Source: Gaiellaceae bacterium (lineage in GTDB: Bacteria; Actinomycetota; Thermoleophilia; Gaiellales; Gaiellaceae). From it: a DNA stretch of 27,854 nt. The stretch lies in the NCBI GenBank assembly GCA_044871215.1, contig JBIOZO010000077.1, forward strand, positions 1 to 27,854, read 5' to 3'. Under the pieces are notes generated by a model. The model searched no databases, was not told the origin of the DNA, and saw only the letters and a list, made by a program, of their open reading frames with translations. Of the stretch, positions 1 to 22,411 are shown one piece after another (within the stretch, counting starts at the first letter, position 1; every line of letters begins with the position of its first letter). A program made the position numbers and the translations under genes.

Positions 1-2121
1 GTCGTGATAGACAAGGCGACCGCGTCGAACAACGGCTTCCAGGTCGGCGATCAGATCGGCGTGCAGGCCTTCGGGCCGATCAGGAAGCTGCAGATCAGCG
101 GCATCGCCGAGTTCCCGAACGTCAGCGTCGGCGGCGCGACGTTCGCGATTCTCGACCAGCCCGCCGCCCAGCAGCTGTTCCACAAGGTCGGCCAACTCGA
201 CGGCATTCGCGTTCAGTCGAAGGCCGGGGTCAAGGAGCCCGAGCTGCTGACGCAGATCAAGCCCCTGCTGGGGCCGGCCGAGCAGGTCCGCTCCGGCACG
301 GAGCAGGCGAAGAAGGACCAGGAGTCGGCGGGCAGCTTCATCTCCTTCCTGCGCTACGCGCTACTGGCGTTCGCGGGCATCTCGCTGTTCGTCGGCGCGT
401 TCGTGATTGCGAACACGCTCTCGATCACCATCGCTCAGCGCATGCGCGAGTTCGCGACCCTGCGGACGCTCGGGGCTTCGAGGCGACAGGTGCTGTGGTC
501 GGTCGTGATCGAGGCGCTCGTGATCGGCCTCGTCGGCTCCGTGATCGGCCTCTTCCTCGGCCTCGGCCTGGCGAAGCTGCTGAACGCGCTCTTCGTCGCG
601 ATCGGCATCGACCTGCCGCACGGCTCGACGGTCTTCGCGACCCGGACGGTGATCGTCTCGCTGCTCGTCGGGACGCTGGTGACGCTGTTCGCGAGCATCC
701 GGCCCGCGCGCCGCGCGACGCGCGTCCCGCCGATCGCCGCCGTCCGCGAGGGCTCGGTCCTGCCGCCGTCGCGCTGGGCCAGGTACGGCACGATCACGTC
801 GCTGGCCGTGCTCGTGATCGCGATCGTGATGGTCTCGCTCGGCGCGCTCGCCAGCGGCCTCGCGACCGGGCCGCGACTGCTGCTTCTCGGTCTCGGCGTG
901 CTGCTGCTCTTCCTAGGGGTCTCGATGAACGCCGCGAAGGTCGTCCGCCCGCTGGCCGCCGTGCTCGGTGCGCCCGCCCGCTCGATCGGCGGGGCTCCCG
1001 GCATCCTCGCCCGCGACAACGCGACGCGGAACCCCGCCCGCACCGCCTCGACCGCTTCGGCGCTGATGATCGGCCTCGCGCTGGTCACGTTCGTGGCGAT
1101 CTTCGGCCAGGGGATCCGCAGCTCGTTCGAGGATGCGGTCAACGAGCTCTTCGTCGGCGACTACGCGCTCACCTCGTCGAACACCTTCACGCCTATCGAG
1201 GCGGAGGCCGGCAAGGCGCTCGTCGGCAAGCCGGGCGTCGAGGACGTCTCGGCGATCCGCGCTGGCTCGGCGCGGTACCTCGGCAGCAACAACGACCTCA
1301 CCGCCGTGCAGCCGAACCTGAACAAGACGCTCTTTATGAAGTGGACGCAGGGCAGCGACGCCACGCCGGGGCAGCTCGGCAACGACGGCTTCTTCGCCAG
1401 CAAGAACTACGTGAAGGACCACCATCTGAGCCTGGGCTCGCCGGTCACGCTTCAGTTCCCGAGCGGCAAGAAGACGACCGTGAAGCTGAAGGGTGTCTGG
1501 GACGAGCCCAAGGGCGGGTCGCCCTTCGCGCACATCACGATCTCGACGACGCTGTTCGACAAGTTCACCCCGCGCCCGCGCGACGAGATGGTGCTCGCGA
1601 ACACGCCGCCCGAGGGCGTCACGGACGCGAACACCGCGAAGCTCGAGTCCGCGGTGAAGGGCTTCGCCGACGCGAAAGTGCAGACGCGCGACGAGTTCAA
1701 GGCGAACTTCGAGGCGCCGATCAACAAGCTCCTCAACCTGCTCTACGCGCTCCTGGCGCTGTCGGTGATCGTCAGCCTCGTCGGGATCATCAACACGCTG
1801 GTGCTCACCGTCTTCGAGCGCACGCGCGAGCTCGGGATGCTCCGCGCCGTCGGCATGACGCGGCGGCAGGTGCGGATGATGATCCGCTACGAGAGCATCG
1901 TCACCGCGCTGATGGGCGCGGCGCTCGGGATGGTCGTCGGGGTGTTCCTCGCGGCGCTCGTCACACACGCGTTGTCGAGCTCGGGAATCGTGTTCGCGGT
2001 GCCGTGGATCGAGATCGTGTACTTCGTGATCGCAGCGATCCTCGTCGGCATCCTCGCGGCCGTGATCCCGGCCCGCCGAGCCGCTCGGCTCAACGTCCTG
2101 CAGGCACTCCAGTACGAATAA
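1..2121 (+). CDS. ABC transporter permease, FtsX/MacB-like with two permease repeats; 5'-truncated by the window edge
   Basis: Two FtsX-type TM blocks with signatures 'TIAQRMREFATLRTLGASRRQV' and 'VFERTRELGMLRAVGMTRRQV' separated by an extracytoplasmic domain. The frame is open to the window start. Confidence 0.9.
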   Translation, partial: VVIDKATASNNGFQVGDQIGVQAFGPIRKLQISGIAEFPNVSVGGATFAILDQPAAQQLFHKVGQLDGIRVQSKAGVKEPELLTQIKPLLGPAEQVRSGTEQAKKDQESAGSFISFLRYALLAFAGISLFVGAFVIANTLSITIAQRMREFATLRTLGASRRQVLWSVVIEALVIGLVGSVIGLFLGLGLAKLLNALFVAIGIDLPHGSTVFATRTVIVSLLVGTLVTLFASIRPARRATRVPPIAAVREGSVLPPSRWARYGTITSLAVLVIAIVMVSLGALASGLATGPRLLLLGLGVLLLFLGVSMNAAKVVRPLAAVLGAPARSIGGAPGILARDNATRNPARTASTASALMIGLALVTFVAIFGQGIRSSFEDAVNELFVGDYALTSSNTFTPIEAEAGKALVGKPGVEDVSAIRAGSARYLGSNNDLTAVQPNLNKTLFMKWTQGSDATPGQLGNDGFFASKNYVKDHHLSLGSPVTLQFPSGKKTTVKLKGVWDEPKGGSPFAHITISTTLFDKFTPRPRDEMVLANTPPEGVTDANTAKLESAVKGFADAKVQTRDEFKANFEAPINKLLNLLYALLALSVIVSLVGIINTLVLTVFERTRELGMLRAVGMTRRQVRMMIRYESIVTALMGAALGMVVGVFLAALVTHALSSSGIVFAVPWIEIVYFVIAAILVGILAAVIPARRAARLNVLQALQYE

Positions 2122-2145
2122 GGCGCCGCTTGCGCTGCCGCTTCA

Positions 2146-2172
2146 GGTCGCCCGGAGGTTCTCCGGGCGACC
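2146..2172 (+). terminator. Hairpin after the permease, probable U-tract-less terminator
   Basis: Perfect 12-bp inverted repeat GGTCGCCCGGAG-gtt-CTCCGGGCGACC, 24 nt after the stop codon. Confidence 0.6.
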
Positions 2173-2244
2173 GTCGGAAATGACCGGTCGGGCGCTCTGG
2201 GAATCAGCCGGCGCAATAAAGGCGGCGTCGTCCGGAGGCCTGCA

Positions 2245-2250
2245 TAGGCT
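2245..2250 (+). promoter_or_regulatory. -10 box for a leaderless transcript
   Basis: TAGGCT (TANNNT) lies 6 nt before the GTG at 2257. Confidence 0.5.
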
Positions 2251-2256
2251 CCGGCC

Positions 2257-2445
2257 GTGCGCCGGCTGCGACCGCTCAGCGAGAAAGAGTGCTACCTCCG
2301 CTGCTACGGCGTGGACGAGACGACGGTGCGGGTCGTCCGGATCGAGCCGCGGGCGGCGGCTCCACGCTTTCGGGTGACCGGTGAGGAGCTGCGACGCCTG
2401 TTCGAGGTTCGGCTCGACGCCCGCGAGGCGGAGCTCGCCGCGTGA
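2257..2445 (+). CDS. Small hypothetical protein, 62 aa, with a CxxxC motif
   Basis: MRRLRPLSEKECYLRCYG...; high GC3 codon use, a leaderless -10 directly upstream, and it fills an otherwise empty intergenic gap. Confidence 0.65.
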   Translation: MRRLRPLSEKECYLRCYGVDETTVRVVRIEPRAAAPRFRVTGEELRRLFEVRLDAREAELAA

Positions 2446-2514
2446 AGACCTGCGCCCGTTGGAGCCGCACGCGCCGGGTGATCGGCATGCGCGTCGTGCC
2501 GCGGCCGTCCGCAC

Positions 2515-3087
2515 ATGAGCGGCCTTGCTCGCCGCGGCGACGCTCCGCGGCCCGCTGCCGCTAGCGCCGTTCCGGACGTCCTCGGGCCGGACCTAAGCGT
2601 CGTCTTTTGTGGGATCAATCCCGGCTTCGTCTCCGACGCTGCGAGGGCGCACTTCGCGAATTCGCGCAACGACTTCTGGCGCCTCCTGCACGCGGCCGGA
2701 TTCACTTCGCGGCTGTACGAGCCGGCGGAGCAGTTCGAGGTTCTGCGCGAGGGCATCGGCCTGACGAACGCCGCGCCGCGAACGACACGCGGCTCCGGCG
2801 ACCTGCGGCGGGCCGACTTCGCCGGCGCGGCCGAGCGGCTCGAACAGGTCGCGCTCGAGCTGCGGCCCGGCTGGATCGGGTTCGTCGGCAAAGAGGCGTA
2901 TCGGGGCGCGTTCAACGAGCGGCCGGAGCTCGGACCGCAGGAACGCGTGCTCGGCCGGACGCGGCTCTTCGTGCTGCCGTCAACTTCACCCGCGAACGCC
3001 GCCGTACCGTGGGATGAGCGGCTGCGCTGGTTCCGAGAGTTGCGCGAAAAGGTCAAAAGTCGGCGCCGAACCACGCGCAAGCCCTAG
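2515..3087 (+). CDS. mug: Mismatch-specific uracil/thymine DNA glycosylase (MUG/TDG family); start uncertain
   Basis: Motifs VFCGINPG, 'NDFWRLL', GLTN and LPSTSPAN are typical of UDG family 2. Confidence 0.9.
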   Translation: MSGLARRGDAPRPAAASAVPDVLGPDLSVVFCGINPGFVSDAARAHFANSRNDFWRLLHAAGFTSRLYEPAEQFEVLREGIGLTNAAPRTTRGSGDLRRADFAGAAERLEQVALELRPGWIGFVGKEAYRGAFNERPELGPQERVLGRTRLFVLPSTSPANAAVPWDERLRWFRELREKVKSRRRTTRKP

Positions 3088-12418: not shown

Positions 12419-13306
12419 GTGGGTCGCGTCGTCGCCGTCCTCTTCGCGGTAGCGGCTCTCAGCGCCGGTTGCGGCGGTTCTACGACCGCTCACGCCCTCA
12501 CTCTCGACTCGATCCTCCAGCGGCCCGGCCCTGACATCGGCGTCACCGCCGGTGCCGGCGACTTCGCGCCGGGCGCCGTGCGCTTCCCGTTCCTCGTGAT
12601 CGCGAGCAACGCGAAGCCGGTCGAGCGTCCGGCTGCCGCGGTCTGGGTCGCGACGAGCCGGGACGGCAAGCCGTTCCAGCACGTGAGCGCGAAGCTCGAG
12701 CCGATCGGCGTGCCCGGCCGCTCGGAAGCTGCCTTCGGCGGGGTGCGGCGGATCTACGTCGCGCACCTGCGGATACCGCGGCCCGGCCGCTACTGGCTGG
12801 TCGCCGAGCCGCAGGGTGCCGAGCTGCAGGCGCTCGGCGCGATCGACGTGGCGTCGCGGTCGCGCAGCACCGCCGTCGGCGAACTGGCTCCGCGCTCGGA
12901 CACTCCGACGCTCGCGACGGCGCCGGCTGCCCAGATCACCACGAACACCCCGCCGGACCTCCCGCTGCTGCGCTACTCGGTGGCGGAGTCGCTGGCCGCC
13001 CACGTTCCCTTCGTGGTGACGTTCGCGACGCCGAAGTTCTGCACCAGCCGCACGTGCGGGCCGGTCGTGGACGTCGTCGAGGCCGTGCGGAAGCAGTTCG
13101 CCGCGCGCGGGATCCGCTTCATTCACGTCGAGGTGTTCGAGCACAACGACCCGACCCGCGGCTACAACCGCTGGATGCGCCAGTGGGGCCTGCGCAGCGA
13201 GCCCTGGGTGTTCCTCGTCGGCCGTGACGGCCGGGTAAAGGCGAAGTTCGAAGGATCGGTCTCCCAGCGCGAGCTCGCTGGCGCCGTGCGCGCTCACCTG
13301 GGCTAA
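12419..13306 (+). CDS. Putative lipoprotein with a C-terminal thioredoxin-like domain; leaderless
   Basis: Lipobox-like LSAG|C after a hydrophobic stretch; FCTSRTCGP (Cx4C), FIHVE and EPWVFLVGRDG resembling the cis-Pro strand. TAGACT (12407-12412) lies 6 nt before the GTG. Confidence 0.75.
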   Translation: MGRVVAVLFAVAALSAGCGGSTTAHALTLDSILQRPGPDIGVTAGAGDFAPGAVRFPFLVIASNAKPVERPAAAVWVATSRDGKPFQHVSAKLEPIGVPGRSEAAFGGVRRIYVAHLRIPRPGRYWLVAEPQGAELQALGAIDVASRSRSTAVGELAPRSDTPTLATAPAAQITTNTPPDLPLLRYSVAESLAAHVPFVVTFATPKFCTSRTCGPVVDVVEAVRKQFAARGIRFIHVEVFEHNDPTRGYNRWMRQWGLRSEPWVFLVGRDGRVKAKFEGSVSQRELAGAVRAHLG

Positions 13307-15110: not shown

Positions 15111-16151
15111 GTGAACCTGGAGACCGGAACCGTCAAGCTCACCGACCTCGCCTCGTGCGGGGGCTGCGCCGCCAAGTACTCGGCCGCGCGCCTCGAGCAG
15201 TTGCTCGCAGGATTCGTCCCGGCAGAGGCCGAGGACCTGCTCGTCGGGCTCGCCCCTGCGGACGACGCCGCCGTCTACCGGCTCGACGACGAGCGGGCGC
15301 TGATCTTTACGCTCGACTTCTTCCCGCCGGTCGTGGACGACCCCGGCGACTACGGCGCGATCGCTGCGACCAACGCATTGAACGACGTGTTCGCGATGGG
15401 CGGCACGCCGCTGCTCGCGCTGTCGATCGCGGCGTTCCCGGAGGAGCTGCCGATGGAGATGCTGGCCGAGATCTTCGCGGCCGCCGACAAGCAGGTGCGC
15501 GCGGCCGGAGGGCTGCTGGCAGGCGGTCATACGATCCGTGACGCCGAGCCGAAGTACGGTCTCGCCGTCGTCGGCACCGTCCACCCGAAGGGCATCTGGC
15601 CGAAGAACGGCGCGCGGCCGGGAGATGCGGTCTTCCTCACCAAGCCGCTCGGCACCGGGCTGATCATGAGCGGCTACAAGCGCGGCCAGGCGGGCGTGCA
15701 GCAGCTCGAGCGCGCGATCCGCTGGATGCGAACGCTGAACAACGAGGCGGCCGACGTGCTGCGCGGGCTCGAGCCGAGCGCCGTCACCGACGTTACGGGC
15801 TTCGGCCTCTTCGGCCATGCGCACGAGGTCGCCGACCGGAGCGGCGCGCGGATCGTGCTCGAGTCCGAGCGCTTCCCCGCCATCGACGGCGCGCTCGACG
15901 CGGCGCGTCAGGGCGTCCGCACGAGCGGCGACCCGCGCAACCGCGACTTCGCCGCGAGCCATGTCGAGCTGGCCGACAGCGTGCCCGACGCGCTCGACGC
16001 GCTCGGTTACGACCCCCAGACGGCCGGCGGTCTGCTCGTGACGATCCCTGCTGAACGCGGCCCCGCGCTCGAGGCGGAGTTCGAGTCGCGCAAGCTGTTC
16101 GTCCGCCGCATCGGCCGCGTGGAGGAAGGCGCCGGCGTCACCGTCGCCTGA
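15111..16151 (+). CDS. selD: Selenide, water dikinase (selenophosphate synthetase), Cys form
   Basis: SCGGCAAK active-site motif (TGC codon, not TGA), DDAAV, DFFPP, NALNDVFAMG, GGHT, DVTGFGL and DPQTAGGLL. Confidence 0.95.
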   Translation: MNLETGTVKLTDLASCGGCAAKYSAARLEQLLAGFVPAEAEDLLVGLAPADDAAVYRLDDERALIFTLDFFPPVVDDPGDYGAIAATNALNDVFAMGGTPLLALSIAAFPEELPMEMLAEIFAAADKQVRAAGGLLAGGHTIRDAEPKYGLAVVGTVHPKGIWPKNGARPGDAVFLTKPLGTGLIMSGYKRGQAGVQQLERAIRWMRTLNNEAADVLRGLEPSAVTDVTGFGLFGHAHEVADRSGARIVLESERFPAIDGALDAARQGVRTSGDPRNRDFAASHVELADSVPDALDALGYDPQTAGGLLVTIPAERGPALEAEFESRKLFVRRIGRVEEGAGVTVA

Positions 16152-16725: not shown

Positions 16726-16764
16726 TGAACCCGTGAGCAATCGCCGCAACCCAGGGGGTTTCGA

Positions 16765-17637
16765 ATGCGCATCGCCGTACTCGCCGCAGTCGCCACGCTC
16801 GCGCTCGCCGTTACCGGCGCGTCGCAGCCGGCGGCGCAGGTGACCAAGACGTTCTCGATCACGGCCACGGGCTTCACCCCGACGAGCCGCACGATCGCGA
16901 CCACGGACGCAATCAAGTGGACGAATAAGGACACCAAGACGCATCAGGTCGTCGCCAACAACGGCAGCTTCGCCTCGCCGGTGCTCGCGCCCGGCAAGAG
17001 CTACACGCACACCTTCAACACGGCCGGCACCTTCCGCTTCCACGACGCGCTGCACCCCGCGCTGACCGGCAGGGTGGTCGTGACCGGCCCGCCGCCTGCG
17101 ATCACGATCGGGGCGACGACGCCGATCCTTGACTACGGGCAGTCCACGCACATCTCCGGCGTCGTTTCGAACGGCAAGGCCGGCGAGACGGTGACCGTGT
17201 ACGCGACGCCGTACGGCACGACTTCCCCGGTCCTGATCGGGACGCTGCTGACCAGCACCAACGGCGTCTGGGATCTCGTCGTCAAGCCCACGCGGCTCAC
17301 GAGCTACTCGGCGCATTGGAAGACCACCGTGAGCCAGCCGATCGGGATCCAGCTCCGCCCGACGGTCGTCTTCGGCGCGAACAAGAAGATCGGCTCGGTC
17401 AAGGTCAAGGCCGACCGCTCGCTGACCGGCAAGAAGGTGTACCTGCAGAAATTCACCAAGTTCCACGAGTGGGTCAAGGTTCGCTCGGTGATCCTCGGCA
17501 ACGGCTCGGCCAAGCGCTTCGCGCTCGGACTTCCGCACCGCCACCGCTACGCGATCCGCATCTTCATGTCGCTGAACCAGATCGGGGCCGGCTACCTCGA
17601 CGGCTTCAGCAAGACCGTCGTCGTCAAGACGGCGTAG
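16765..17637 (+). CDS. Secreted protein with an N-terminal cupredoxin (amicyanin/plastocyanin-like) domain and a beta-rich C-terminal region
   Basis: Signal peptide; 'IKWTNKDTKTHQV' and 'YTHTFNTAGTFRFHDALHPALTGRVVV' match the cupredoxin pattern, but with Cys->Asp and Met->Leu. Confidence 0.8.
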   Translation: MRIAVLAAVATLALAVTGASQPAAQVTKTFSITATGFTPTSRTIATTDAIKWTNKDTKTHQVVANNGSFASPVLAPGKSYTHTFNTAGTFRFHDALHPALTGRVVVTGPPPAITIGATTPILDYGQSTHISGVVSNGKAGETVTVYATPYGTTSPVLIGTLLTSTNGVWDLVVKPTRLTSYSAHWKTTVSQPIGIQLRPTVVFGANKKIGSVKVKADRSLTGKKVYLQKFTKFHEWVKVRSVILGNGSAKRFALGLPHRHRYAIRIFMSLNQIGAGYLDGFSKTVVVKTA

Positions 17638-18934: not shown

Positions 18935-19861
18935 GTGCACGTCGAATCGACGACGCTCCGGCGGTTCGAGCTCTCGCCCGCGCGCTACTTTCAACTCACG
19001 CTTGTCTCGCTCGGCGCGCTCTGGCTGATCGTGGTCACCGGCGCGGCCGTGCGCTTGACGAACTCCGGTCTCGGTTGCCGTCACTGGCCCGGCTGCGAGA
19101 AGGGTGCGCCGCTGCCGGCGAAGGACTACCACGCGTTCATCGAATTCGGCAACCGAGCGCTCGGCGGGATCGTGATCCTCGTGGTGCTCCTGACGGCGGT
19201 GGCCGCGTTCATCGTGCCCGGTCTCGGCCGTTGGCGCCGACTCGCAGTCGCGATCTTCGTCGGCACGCTTGCCCAGGCACCCTTGGGCTATCTCGCCGTC
19301 CACAGCGACCTGCACTGGCCCGTCGTGGCCGCGCACCTCCTGCTGTCGATGGCGCTCCTCGCAGGCGCGGTCGTGCTGGCGCTGGAGACGCTCGCACTTC
19401 GCTCCGGCCGCGCCGAGCCGTTCGCGCCGCGAGAGCTGCGGCTGTGGTCGCTCGCCGTCACGGCCACCGCGGCCATCCTGCTCGTCACGGGCACGCTCGC
19501 GACAGCCGGCGGGCCGCACTCAGGCGGCGGCGCGCAGCAGGTCGACCGCCTCTGGCGCCTGCAGCCGCTGATCTACGTCCACGCCGCGGCGGTGGCAGTC
19601 TTCGCGATCGCGCTCGTCTTCGTCCTCGGCTATCTGGCGGCGGGCCGCGCGCGGTGGCCGCGGCTGTTCGCGCTCGGGCTCGCGGTCTTCGTCGCGCTGC
19701 TCGTTCAGATGGGACTGGGCGATCTCCAGTACCGGACGCACCTCCCCTGGGAGCTGGTGCTCGTCCACGTCGGGCTTGCTGCGGCCGTCTGGGCGCTGCT
19801 CGTCGCCTTCGTCACGGTTCTTTGGCGCCCGCCGGCCGCTCTCGCGGCAGGCCGCACGTAG
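18935..19861 (+). CDS. ctaA: COX15/CtaA (heme A synthase) family membrane protein
   Basis: About 8 TM; GAAVRLTNSGLGC..WPGC loop, IEFGNR, and His in VAAHLL, YVHAA and LVHVG. Confidence 0.8.
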   Translation: MHVESTTLRRFELSPARYFQLTLVSLGALWLIVVTGAAVRLTNSGLGCRHWPGCEKGAPLPAKDYHAFIEFGNRALGGIVILVVLLTAVAAFIVPGLGRWRRLAVAIFVGTLAQAPLGYLAVHSDLHWPVVAAHLLLSMALLAGAVVLALETLALRSGRAEPFAPRELRLWSLAVTATAAILLVTGTLATAGGPHSGGGAQQVDRLWRLQPLIYVHAAAVAVFAIALVFVLGYLAAGRARWPRLFALGLAVFVALLVQMGLGDLQYRTHLPWELVLVHVGLAAAVWALLVAFVTVLWRPPAALAAGRT

Positions 19862-20761: not shown

Positions 20762-22411
20762 CTAGCCGAACGTAAACGCGTAGGCCGCGATCCCGGGCGT
20801 GAAGCGCAGCTCCAGCGCGCCTTCGGCCAACCCGGCGTAGTGCAGCAACGTGTAGAGGCGGCTCAGGCCGCTGACAGGGATCGTCTTCACGGAACGGCCG
20901 CCGACGATCACTTGCAGCCGGCCCTTGCCGCTCAAGACGAGGTAGACGTTCTGTGCGAGGAAGTGCAGGCGCAGCCGCGCGTTGTGGACGGCGACGATCC
21001 GCTGGCGCTCGACCTTCCAGATGCCCGCGTAGGCGAGGTCGTTGAGCGGAATCTCACGTGGGAAGCGGTAGCTGACGGGCACGTTCGCCGAGAGGGGCGA
21101 GCCCACGTAGCGGTCGAGCCGCTCCCAGCCGAGGTACGACTCGGGCGTGGTCAGGTGCTGCGGCGTGCGGTCCTTCACCGAGGCGAGCTGCGCGGTCGCG
21201 GGCTCGCCGAGCAGGGACCGGATTGTCTCCTCGGTCTCGCCGTACTGCCCCTCGCCCTTCTTGATCTCCCGCACGTTGCCGCGCTTGTCGATCAGGTACT
21301 CCGCCGGCCAGGAGTCGTTCTGGTACGCGTCCCACGTCTTGTAGCCGTTGTCGATCGCGACCGGATAGCGGACGCCGAGCTTGCGCGTGGCCTCGCGGAC
21401 GTTCGAGACCACGTGTTCGAACGCGAACTCGGGCGTGTGCACGCCGACGATCACGAGCCCGGCCTTGCGGTAGCGCTTGTCCCACGCCTCGAGGTGCGGA
21501 AGCGTGCGCAGGCAGTTGATGCACGAGTACGTCCAGAAGTCGACGAGCACGACCTTGCCGCGGAGCCCCTGGAGGGTCAGCGGCTTCGAATTGATCCACT
21601 GGGACACTCCAGCGAAGTCGGGCGCCGCACCGTAGTTCGCGAGCTTGCTCGCTGCCGGCTCGGCCTTGAAGCGCGCGGGGCCGCGGTGCTGGAGCTTCGC
21701 GAGCTCGTCCCGTGCGACCGAGCTGCGCTCCGCGCCTTGCAGCGCGTGCGTGTAGTCCGGGAACCAGGTCTGCAGCTTCGTGTCGGCGTTGAAGACGAGC
21801 GCGAGCGCGGCCAGCGCCAGGACCACGCCGAGGCCGGTGCGCAGCGCCTGGGCGTTCATCCGGATGCGCCTCGTCGCCCGCTGGCCAAGCGCCGCGATCG
21901 CCAGCATCGGCAGTGCGGCGCCGAGCGCGTAGGCGAGGGTGATCGCGATCGTCTGCCAGCCGAGGTGCACGCGAGCGGCGTTCGCCGAGATCGCGCCGAT
22001 GATCGGGCCGCCGCACGGGACGAATACGAGCCCGAGGCTCGCGCCGAGCAGGAAGCCGCCGCCGAGGTCGCTTCCGGGACTGCGGCGGCTCAGCCGAGCG
22101 AGCGGCCGCTCGAGCCAGACGCCGAACTGCGGGATGATGAGGCTAGCCGCCACGAGGAAGAGCAGGCCGATCGAGAGGTTGCGCAGGAAGTCCTGCGGCA
22201 GGTGGAGCTGTCGCAGCAGCCAGGTCGCCATCAGCGTGAAAGTCGCGAAGCTCGCGACGAGGCCGGCGATGATCGCGTACGGCTTACGCCGGCCGCCCGT
22301 CGCGCCGCCGGCGAACAGGATCGGCAGCACGGGGAACACGCACGGCGAGATCGCGGTGACGATGCCCGCGGCGAAGGCGATCGGGAGCAGGATCAGGAAG
22401 CGCCCGTCCAT
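20762..22411 (-). CDS. dipZ: DipZ-type cytochrome c biogenesis/redox protein (CcdA TM domain + thioredoxin + C-terminal domain)
   Basis: ISPCVFP and FVPCGGP CcdA cysteines; DFWTYSCINC, GVHTPEF and TPESYLG. Confidence 0.92.
   Translation of the reverse strand: MDGRFLILLPIAFAAGIVTAISPCVFPVLPILFAGGATGGRRKPYAIIAGLVASFATFTLMATWLLRQLHLPQDFLRNLSIGLLFLVAASLIIPQFGVWLERPLARLSRRSPGSDLGGGFLLGASLGLVFVPCGGPIIGAISANAARVHLGWQTIAITLAYALGAALPMLAIAALGQRATRRIRMNAQALRTGLGVVLALAALALVFNADTKLQTWFPDYTHALQGAERSSVARDELAKLQHRGPARFKAEPAASKLANYGAAPDFAGVSQWINSKPLTLQGLRGKVVLVDFWTYSCINCLRTLPHLEAWDKRYRKAGLVIVGVHTPEFAFEHVVSNVREATRKLGVRYPVAIDNGYKTWDAYQNDSWPAEYLIDKRGNVREIKKGEGQYGETEETIRSLLGEPATAQLASVKDRTPQHLTTPESYLGWERLDRYVGSPLSANVPVSYRFPREIPLNDLAYAGIWKVERQRIVAVHNARLRLHFLAQNVYLVLSGKGRLQVIVGGRSVKTIPVSGLSRLYTLLHYAGLAEGALELRFTPGIAAYAFTFG

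Follow-up and report, generated by a model that had tools for sequence, protein, structure and literature searches.

The protein encoded by nucleotides 16765 to 17637 of the window (the whole stretch of 27,854 nucleotides that was analysed) begins with a cupredoxin domain in which an aspartate occupies the place of the copper-binding cysteine. Our preferred reading, to which we give about an even chance, is that of a relict copper site, in which His60 (or an arginine in its place) and Asp94 pair up structurally within a rapidly evolving, secreted three-domain protein of the cell envelope or extracellular space. Comparison with hundreds of relatives, made at the level of sequence, suggests an old copper site in decay, not a conserved new metal centre.

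Gene and domain organisation

The open reading frame (16765..17637, +) encodes 290 amino acids and contains no internal stop codon. Its translation is entirely without cysteine, as are 120 of its 121 close homologues. A Shine-Dalgarno-like AGGGGG, read from the sequence, occupies positions 16753..16758 (+), with the ATG codon 6 nt downstream; a scan for promoters and terminators between positions 16000 and 18000 found nothing. The amino-terminus is a putative Sec-type signal peptide of around 25 residues (16765..16839, +), consisting of the hydrophobic stretch IAVLAAVATLALAV followed by TGASQPAAQ, with neither a twin-arginine motif nor a lipobox cysteine. In the AlphaFold2 model, a helix is formed by residues 3–14, and residues 1–22 have pLDDT values below 50. 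The translation contains no carboxy-terminal anchor. On the basis of its hydrophobic amino-terminus the protein is predicted to be secreted, as the earlier note had proposed, and to have no membrane tether. A histidine brace like that of the LPMOs was ruled out, the amino-terminal residue of the mature protein not being a histidine.

The signal peptide is followed by the cupredoxin domain (residues 26–108; 16840..17088, +), delimited from the PF13473 match, PDB alignments and the model, which is amicyanin/plastocyanin-like and belongs to what we call the Asp-type. A proline-rich linker, read from the translation as GPPP (residues 108–111; 17089..17100, +), connects it to the rest of the protein; P109 to P111 are close to invariant in close homologues. 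Two Ig-like beta-sandwich domains complete the chain. The first comprises approximately residues 113–198 (17101..17358, +), with modelled strands between residues 121 and 198 and a pLDDT above 90, and the second approximately residues 199–290 plus the stop codon (17359..17637, +), with modelled strands between residues 200 and 288.

Four residues of the cupredoxin domain are central to what follows, and a residue count on the translation finds all of them where the earlier note had placed them, one in the segment WTNKDTKTH and three in the carboxy-terminal loop. His60 (codon CAT, 16942..16944, +) lies within WTNKDTKTH, corresponds to His53 of amicyanin and is conserved as histidine or sometimes arginine. 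Asp94 (GAC, 17044..17046, +) is located at the position of the cysteine ligand and is the signature of the Asp-type clade described below. His97 (CAC, 17053..17055, +), at the position of the second histidine ligand, and Leu100 (CTG, 17062..17064, +), at that of the axial methionine, are both fast-evolving, and the latter is coupled to the former.

Fold and residue equivalences

Residues 9–106 match the Pfam family PF13473 (Cupredoxin_1) with 37.9 bits, above its 27-bit cut-off. The match to PF00127 (20.2 bits) is slightly below the cut-off of 21.2 bits, and that to the NCBIfam amicyanin model (30.3 bits) fails the cut-off of 110.2 bits. In a phmmer search of the PDB, residues 42–106 pair with residues 35–104 of Paracoccus amicyanin (E values of 3e-6 to 8e-6), in a register that leaves the ligand loop ungapped and in which H60 corresponds to His53, D94 to Cys92, H97 to His95 and L100 to Met98. 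A profile built from 90 Asp-type domains produces the identical register with an E value of 1e-16. The spacing of the loop is therefore that of Cys92-x2-His95-x2-Met98 in amicyanin, as had been recognised from the letters of the sequence.

A full-length AlphaFold2 model, calculated from an alignment of 88 orthologues, has a pLDDT of 90.3 and contains three beta-sandwich domains (residues 27–107, 121–198 and 200–288). The cupredoxin domain modelled alone reaches a pLDDT of 97.9, and its Greek-key beta-sandwich superposes on solved cupredoxins: on that of N. maritimus (PDB entry 5fc9) with a Z-score of 15.0 and an r.m.s.d. of 1.1 Å, and on amicyanin (1aac) with a Z-score of 13.1 and an r.m.s.d. 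of 1.6 Å for 82 residues (both VIA). Alignment and superposition on amicyanin thus agree that the Cys-to-Asp and Met-to-Leu replacements, both put forward in the earlier note, are natural substitutions in a cupredoxin. H60, D94 and H97 would be expected to cluster in space, by homology to amicyanin. The PDB sequence matches listed include no solved structure of a domain from the Asp-type clade.

That the motif resembles a copper site by chance, or that the reading frame is not a real gene, has a negligible probability, given that 703 homologues are found at E values up to 0.001 (all of the 120 listed being full-length), that the gene is present in 63 species-level genomes, that the Pfam score exceeds its cut-off, that the model has a pLDDT of 90 and that contigs from four RNA studies lie on the gene. 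Judged from the alignments and the model, the homology and the substitution pattern are far beyond chance.

The carboxy-terminal 183 residues have no Pfam match, nor any PDB sequence match at E values up to 10; a feature search gave a hint of Big_3_5. When the whole model is used as a Foldseek query, the matches are multi-domain chains of the Ig/FnIII type, while the first domain leads to the Nitrosopumilus structure 5fc9. A shape search of the Atlas places the protein in a cluster of its own family, with 270 members from Actinomycetota, and residues 105–290 resemble pairs of Ig-like domains found on secreted actinobacterial proteins with YkuD, S8 and Fn3 domains. Nine further proteins were checked for other fusion partners of the carboxy-terminal module, and none of them has a Pfam domain.

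Conservation of the ligand positions

The close set of homologues contains 121 sequences from soil metagenomes and Gaiellaceae that are at least 73% identical. His60 and Asp94 are present in all 121 of them, while position 97 is occupied by His in 90, Tyr in 22 and Phe in 9 sequences, and position 100 by Leu in 94, His in 14 and Arg in 13. The tree of this set implies a minimum of 11 losses of His97 and of nine losses of Leu100. Site rates estimated with IQ-TREE from 106 full-length orthologues, for the 83 sites of the domain (median 0.70), give the same picture. H60 (rate 0.16, rank 11 of 83) and D94 (0.20, rank 13) are among the slow sites, H97 (1.15, rank 65) and L100 (1.37, rank 75) among the fast ones, with at least 32 parsimony changes at H97 and at least 30 at L100. 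Position 60 is His in 96 and Arg in nine of these orthologues, Asp94 is retained in 99 and His97 in 61. In eight of the nine orthologues with Arg60, position 94 is still acidic (Asp or Glu). Arginine is not known to serve as a copper ligand.

Conservation of the aspartate and the histidines, which the earlier note had singled out as decisive, is thus found for His60 and Asp94 and not for the variable positions 97 and 100. In these alignments the conserved feature is a His/Arg–Asp pair and not a three-ligand metal site. Under the relict-site reading, strong constraint in the clade would act only on the first histidine (or arginine) and the aspartate. The two side chains may form a buried polar pair, joined by a hydrogen bond or a salt bridge, which would take over from the Cu–S(Cys) link the task of tying the carboxy-terminal ligand loop to the sandwich. 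In this orthologue, His97 and Leu100 would be ancestral leftovers; it is their average constraint and their repeated loss that would mark the classical site as a relict.

The same residues allow another explanation, namely that this orthologue has a functional mononuclear Cu(II/I) site without sulfur, of the type 2 or 'type zero'-like kind. We regard this as possible, at clearly less than even probability. It would apply to roughly half of the family, those members in which His60, Asp94, His97 and Leu100 are all retained, and would imply extracellular copper binding, buffering or redox activity, with the relatives lacking His97 having lost or changed this function. Four positions match the ligands of amicyanin at identical spacing in a confidently modelled domain. 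The ancestral state inferred on the orthologue tree is His/Asp/His/Leu, and the combination (HHDHL pattern) is still dominant in both of the synteny groups described below, being found in 27 of the 33 species of group A and in 20 of the 33 listed domains of group B; this majority persists at an overall identity of only about 40%. At one locus (L045), for example, the loop reads Y-R-D-A-L-H-P-S-L. Where His/Asp/His is found (57 orthologues), Leu100 accompanies it in 54 cases, a coupling that would be expected if the two residues worked together. Against these points stand the rates of His97 and Leu100, which are at or above the average, the many independent losses among near-identical sequences and the replacement of His60 by arginine in some orthologues. 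The 'type zero' idea of the earlier note therefore survives at the level of sequence, as a His/Asp/His set accompanied by a hydrophobic leucine; a site of this kind held by selection is not supported.

The Asp-type clade

To place the domain among its relatives, 1.8 billion cluster representatives were searched exhaustively, and domains were taken from the best 150 proteins. Of these, 138 contain related cupredoxin domains, 455 in all; the position of the cysteine ligand is occupied by Cys in 312 domains, by Asp in 124 and by another residue in 13. The 119 usable Asp-type domains all group, in the domain tree, within a single clade of 137 tips (support 0.79). Since the Asp-type domains share one clade, the replacement of cysteine by aspartate appears, from these sequences, to have been essentially one event, and an ancient one. 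A single replacement of this kind would have founded the whole clade.

The Cys-type and Asp-type domains of these proteins differ sharply in how well the other ligands have been kept. The Cys-type domains have the first His in 312 of 312 cases, the second His in 311 and the Met in 300, and so show essentially no loss of ligands, which counts against a working copper site in the Asp-type domains of the same proteins. Of the Asp-type domains (124), 112 have the first His, 30 the second His and 33 a Leu at position 100. Taken with the site rates, this contrast at the second His speaks against a 'type zero' centre maintained by selection.

Several further proteins show the range of architectures in which such domains occur. 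A paralogue from the same genome, P0292 (L034, G000 contig C248, 6984..7859, -), is 36% identical and has the same three-domain build as the protein described here, but contains Arg60, Gly94 and Lys97; its gene is adjacent to genes for an MFS-cNMP-binding protein and a glycerate kinase. The same genome also encodes a 400-residue protein in which three Asp-type cupredoxin domains stand in tandem (locus L004, G000:C177:7465-10710, ORF 1369..2571, +), whose loops read YHDGLNPQM, YHDALYPCL and YHDSLYPSK, the second His being present in none of them; P0218 is a similar representative with three domains. Many proteins are longer tandem arrays of 420–1150 residues with four to ten cupredoxin domains (P0124, P0125, P0128, P0150, P0160, P0167 and others). 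Where an array includes an Asp-type domain, this is mostly the first, amino-terminal one (HxDNY or HxD--), with canonical His/Cys/His/Met domains after it.

Canonical Cys/His/Met cupredoxins are encoded in the same genome as well, by L001 (ORF 931..1863, +) and L002 (ORF 1465..1803, +). Both have lipoprotein signal peptides (LAAAGC and VVAGC, respectively), unlike the unanchored Asp-type protein. Lipoprotein anchoring is expected for electron carriers in a single-membrane cell, and the lack of a membrane tether is a further point against a working copper site in the Asp-type protein.

Comparison with known metal-binding cupredoxins

The nearest known relatives are those of the amicyanin/plastocyanin family (1aac, 5fc9 and the carboxy-terminal cupredoxin of NirK, 9cck), which have the same fold as the Asp-type domain, with profile E values from 1e-16 to 2e-23, Z-scores of 13–15 and r.m.s.d. 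values of 1.1–1.7 Å. They share with it the x2/x2 length of the ligand loop, the first His and the W-x-N-x-D and F-x-S motifs. Compared to the type 1 copper proteins, the protein described here has Asp for Cys and Leu for the axial Met, with both canonical His positions retained; compared to the amicyanin family, it has two additional Ig-like domains and lacks a membrane tether. Having no thiolate ligand, it could not form a blue centre absorbing at around 600 nm.

Azurin belongs to a different cupredoxin subfamily (Z-score of 9.1 to the Asp-type domain model) and has an additional backbone-carbonyl ligand. In its engineered form C112D/M121L, both substitutions are equivalent to those found naturally here. 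C112D azurin, a type 2 copper protein (PDB entry 3FQY), and C112D/M121L azurin, a 'type zero' copper protein (3FPY), both cited in PMC8915257, bind Cu(II), which favours a working copper site. The azurin sites were defined by spectroscopy, whereas the likeness seen here comes from sequence, and the natural His97 and Leu100 vary. FtrB of Brucella abortus (8VUK) is a natural cupredoxin without cysteine, in which the loop reads D118-x2-H121; it binds Cu(II) with micromolar affinity and loses this binding when Asp118 is changed to alanine (PMC11966278), a further point in favour of a working copper site. Literature searches on natural cupredoxins that lack Cys and carry Asp turned up no other relevant paper. 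A copper-bound Bacillus anthracis protein, Cupredoxin_1 by its title (4hcf), is also structurally close, with a Z-score of 12.5 and an r.m.s.d. of 1.9 Å for 81 residues, and is absent among the sequence matches listed; its closeness, too, speaks for a working copper site. Considering the azurin double mutant, FtrB and the majority state His/Asp/His/Leu together, in vitro binding of copper is quite possible, and this orthologue may bind Cu(II) or Zn(II) through His60, Asp94 and His97.

Sets of two histidines and a carboxylate often bind zinc or ferrous iron. A third explanation is accordingly that the His/Asp/His set binds Zn, Fe(II) or Mn, as a 2-His-1-carboxylate site or as a ferrous-iron cupredoxin like those of FtrB and EfeO; we consider it unlikely. 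FtrB (8vuk, Z-score of 11.8) and EfeO (7wgu, Z-score of 11.9) are structural neighbours, and the FtrB protein and the EfeO Cup domain ('Cup-II') resemble the protein described here in being extracytoplasmic, in lacking Cys and in having Asp-x2-His in the carboxy-terminal loop. However, neither is found among the PDB sequence and profile matches listed, at E values up to 1, and FtrB has no upstream His, while in the Asp-type clade the upstream His and the Asp are the conserved pair. FtrB, which also has a Glu-rich Fe/Mn site, is encoded in the iron-uptake operon FtrABCD; no such genes are located near the open reading frame described here, nor is any gene for an Ftr1/EfeU-type permease or an EfeB-type protein among its annotated neighbours. 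Some orthologues adjoin Fe/Mn superoxide dismutase genes, a point in favour of another metal, but at the four loci inspected these genes converge on the orthologue instead of running in its direction, and His97, which such a site would use, is not conserved.

We return to the relict-site reading. The amino-terminal domain would be a true amicyanin-like cupredoxin, set in a secreted, unanchored protein of three beta-sandwiches made by soil Gaiellaceae. The conserved job of the family would then not be electron transfer in the manner of the blue copper proteins, and it would probably have no physiological dependence on a metal; a binding or scaffold role in the cell envelope or outside the cell is more likely.

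Genomic context and distribution

The cupredoxin gene is located in a row of genes for an ABC1 kinase, a SelD-like AIRS protein, an NMNAT-like cytidylyltransferase, the cupredoxin itself, a cofactor-independent phosphoglycerate mutase, CtaA and a PAC2 protein; beyond the latter, on the other strand, genes for DipZ and a helicase follow. The AIR-synthase-related gene (15111..16151, +) encodes an amino-terminal CGGCAAK motif, with Cys in place of Sec, which resembles that of a selenophosphate synthetase (SelD); it is 80–93% conserved across the syntenic genomes. Further upstream, a reading frame of 295 amino acids (12419..13306, +) has no Pfam match and a counterpart in a related genome with 66% identity and conserved synteny; in L006 and L007, the counterpart is a called gene of 295 amino acids without Pfam domain.

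A locus scan, which selected on HQ[VI]VANNG and RIFMS[LF]NQ and is biased to closer relatives, found the cupredoxin gene conserved in 63 genomes at species level. Flanking reading frames of the related loci were identified by Pfam, as GC3 did not separate real from shadow reading frames. Full-length orthologues have a patchy distribution and are missing from part of the family's genomes. Two synteny groups can be distinguished. In group A, the gene order given above is maintained in 33 species-level Gaiellaceae genomes, in which the cupredoxin gene is 44–80% identical and its neighbours mostly 54–94%; its lower identity indicates that the cupredoxin gene evolves faster than its neighbours. In group B, of about 29 species (L030, L031, L032, L008, L067-L097), the orthologue has a gene for an ECF-type sigma factor on one side and, on the other, either a single convergent gene for an Fe/Mn superoxide dismutase or two of them, and CtaA and DipZ are absent. 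One called protein of 543 residues (P0286) reads as a fusion of a cupredoxin and a superoxide dismutase-like protein and may be an artefact of gene calling.

The genes for a CtaA-like protein (COX15-CtaA, 18935-19861) and a DipZ-like protein with DsbD_TM and thioredoxin domains (20762-22411, -), which the earlier note had pointed out nearby, are both present, but make a weak copper context. CtaA is of the haem A synthase family (PF02628) and not a copper protein, and the phosphoglycerate mutase gene intervenes between it and the cupredoxin gene. As CtaA and DipZ accompany the orthologue in only one of the two synteny groups, their proximity is lineage-specific synteny in a housekeeping block and not a functional copper link. 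No copper-handling gene is found among the conserved neighbours, which again weighs against a working copper site.

Four metatranscriptomic studies, of soil and rhizosphere, contribute contigs that cover the gene between positions 16758 and 17706, and several pieces of these contigs have no more than three mismatches (0–3) over 98–282 nt. The gene, or near-identical alleles of it, thus occurs in RNA libraries; carry-over of DNA is possible, and depth cannot rank the genes. In the four libraries the gene is covered and the bins of the flanking genes are largely uncovered, which permits no ranking of expression. Three contigs run into Illumina adapter sequence at positions 16758, 16766 and 16792, near the start codon, and these are fragment ends. 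Such ends would be consistent with a 5' leader that is short or missing; contigs of this kind, however, cannot map the ends of transcripts.

Significance

To our knowledge, 'type zero' copper has so far been treated as a purely engineered site, and a natural protein with both of the azurin substitutions is an obvious place to ask whether biology uses it. It is rather doubtful, in our estimate, that about half of the three-domain proteins of the Gaiellaceae, this one included, are natural extracellular counterparts of the 'type zero' site. If this were true, the site would function extracellularly, as part of a protein also found in soil RNA libraries. With similarly low confidence, we suggest that soil Actinomycetota may harbour an old clade whose cupredoxin domains are naturally free of sulfur and have a core of His and Asp. 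In related bacteria, long tandem arrays of canonical cupredoxins usually open with an Asp-type domain.

After the replacement of the cysteine, the remaining ligand positions lost their near-absolute conservation. The family offers a natural experiment, and a clean one, on what keeps a blue copper site together, and it comes with its own contrast set: the His/Asp/His/Leu forms, the forms with Tyr, Phe or Lys at position 97, and the paralogue with Arg60 and Gly94.
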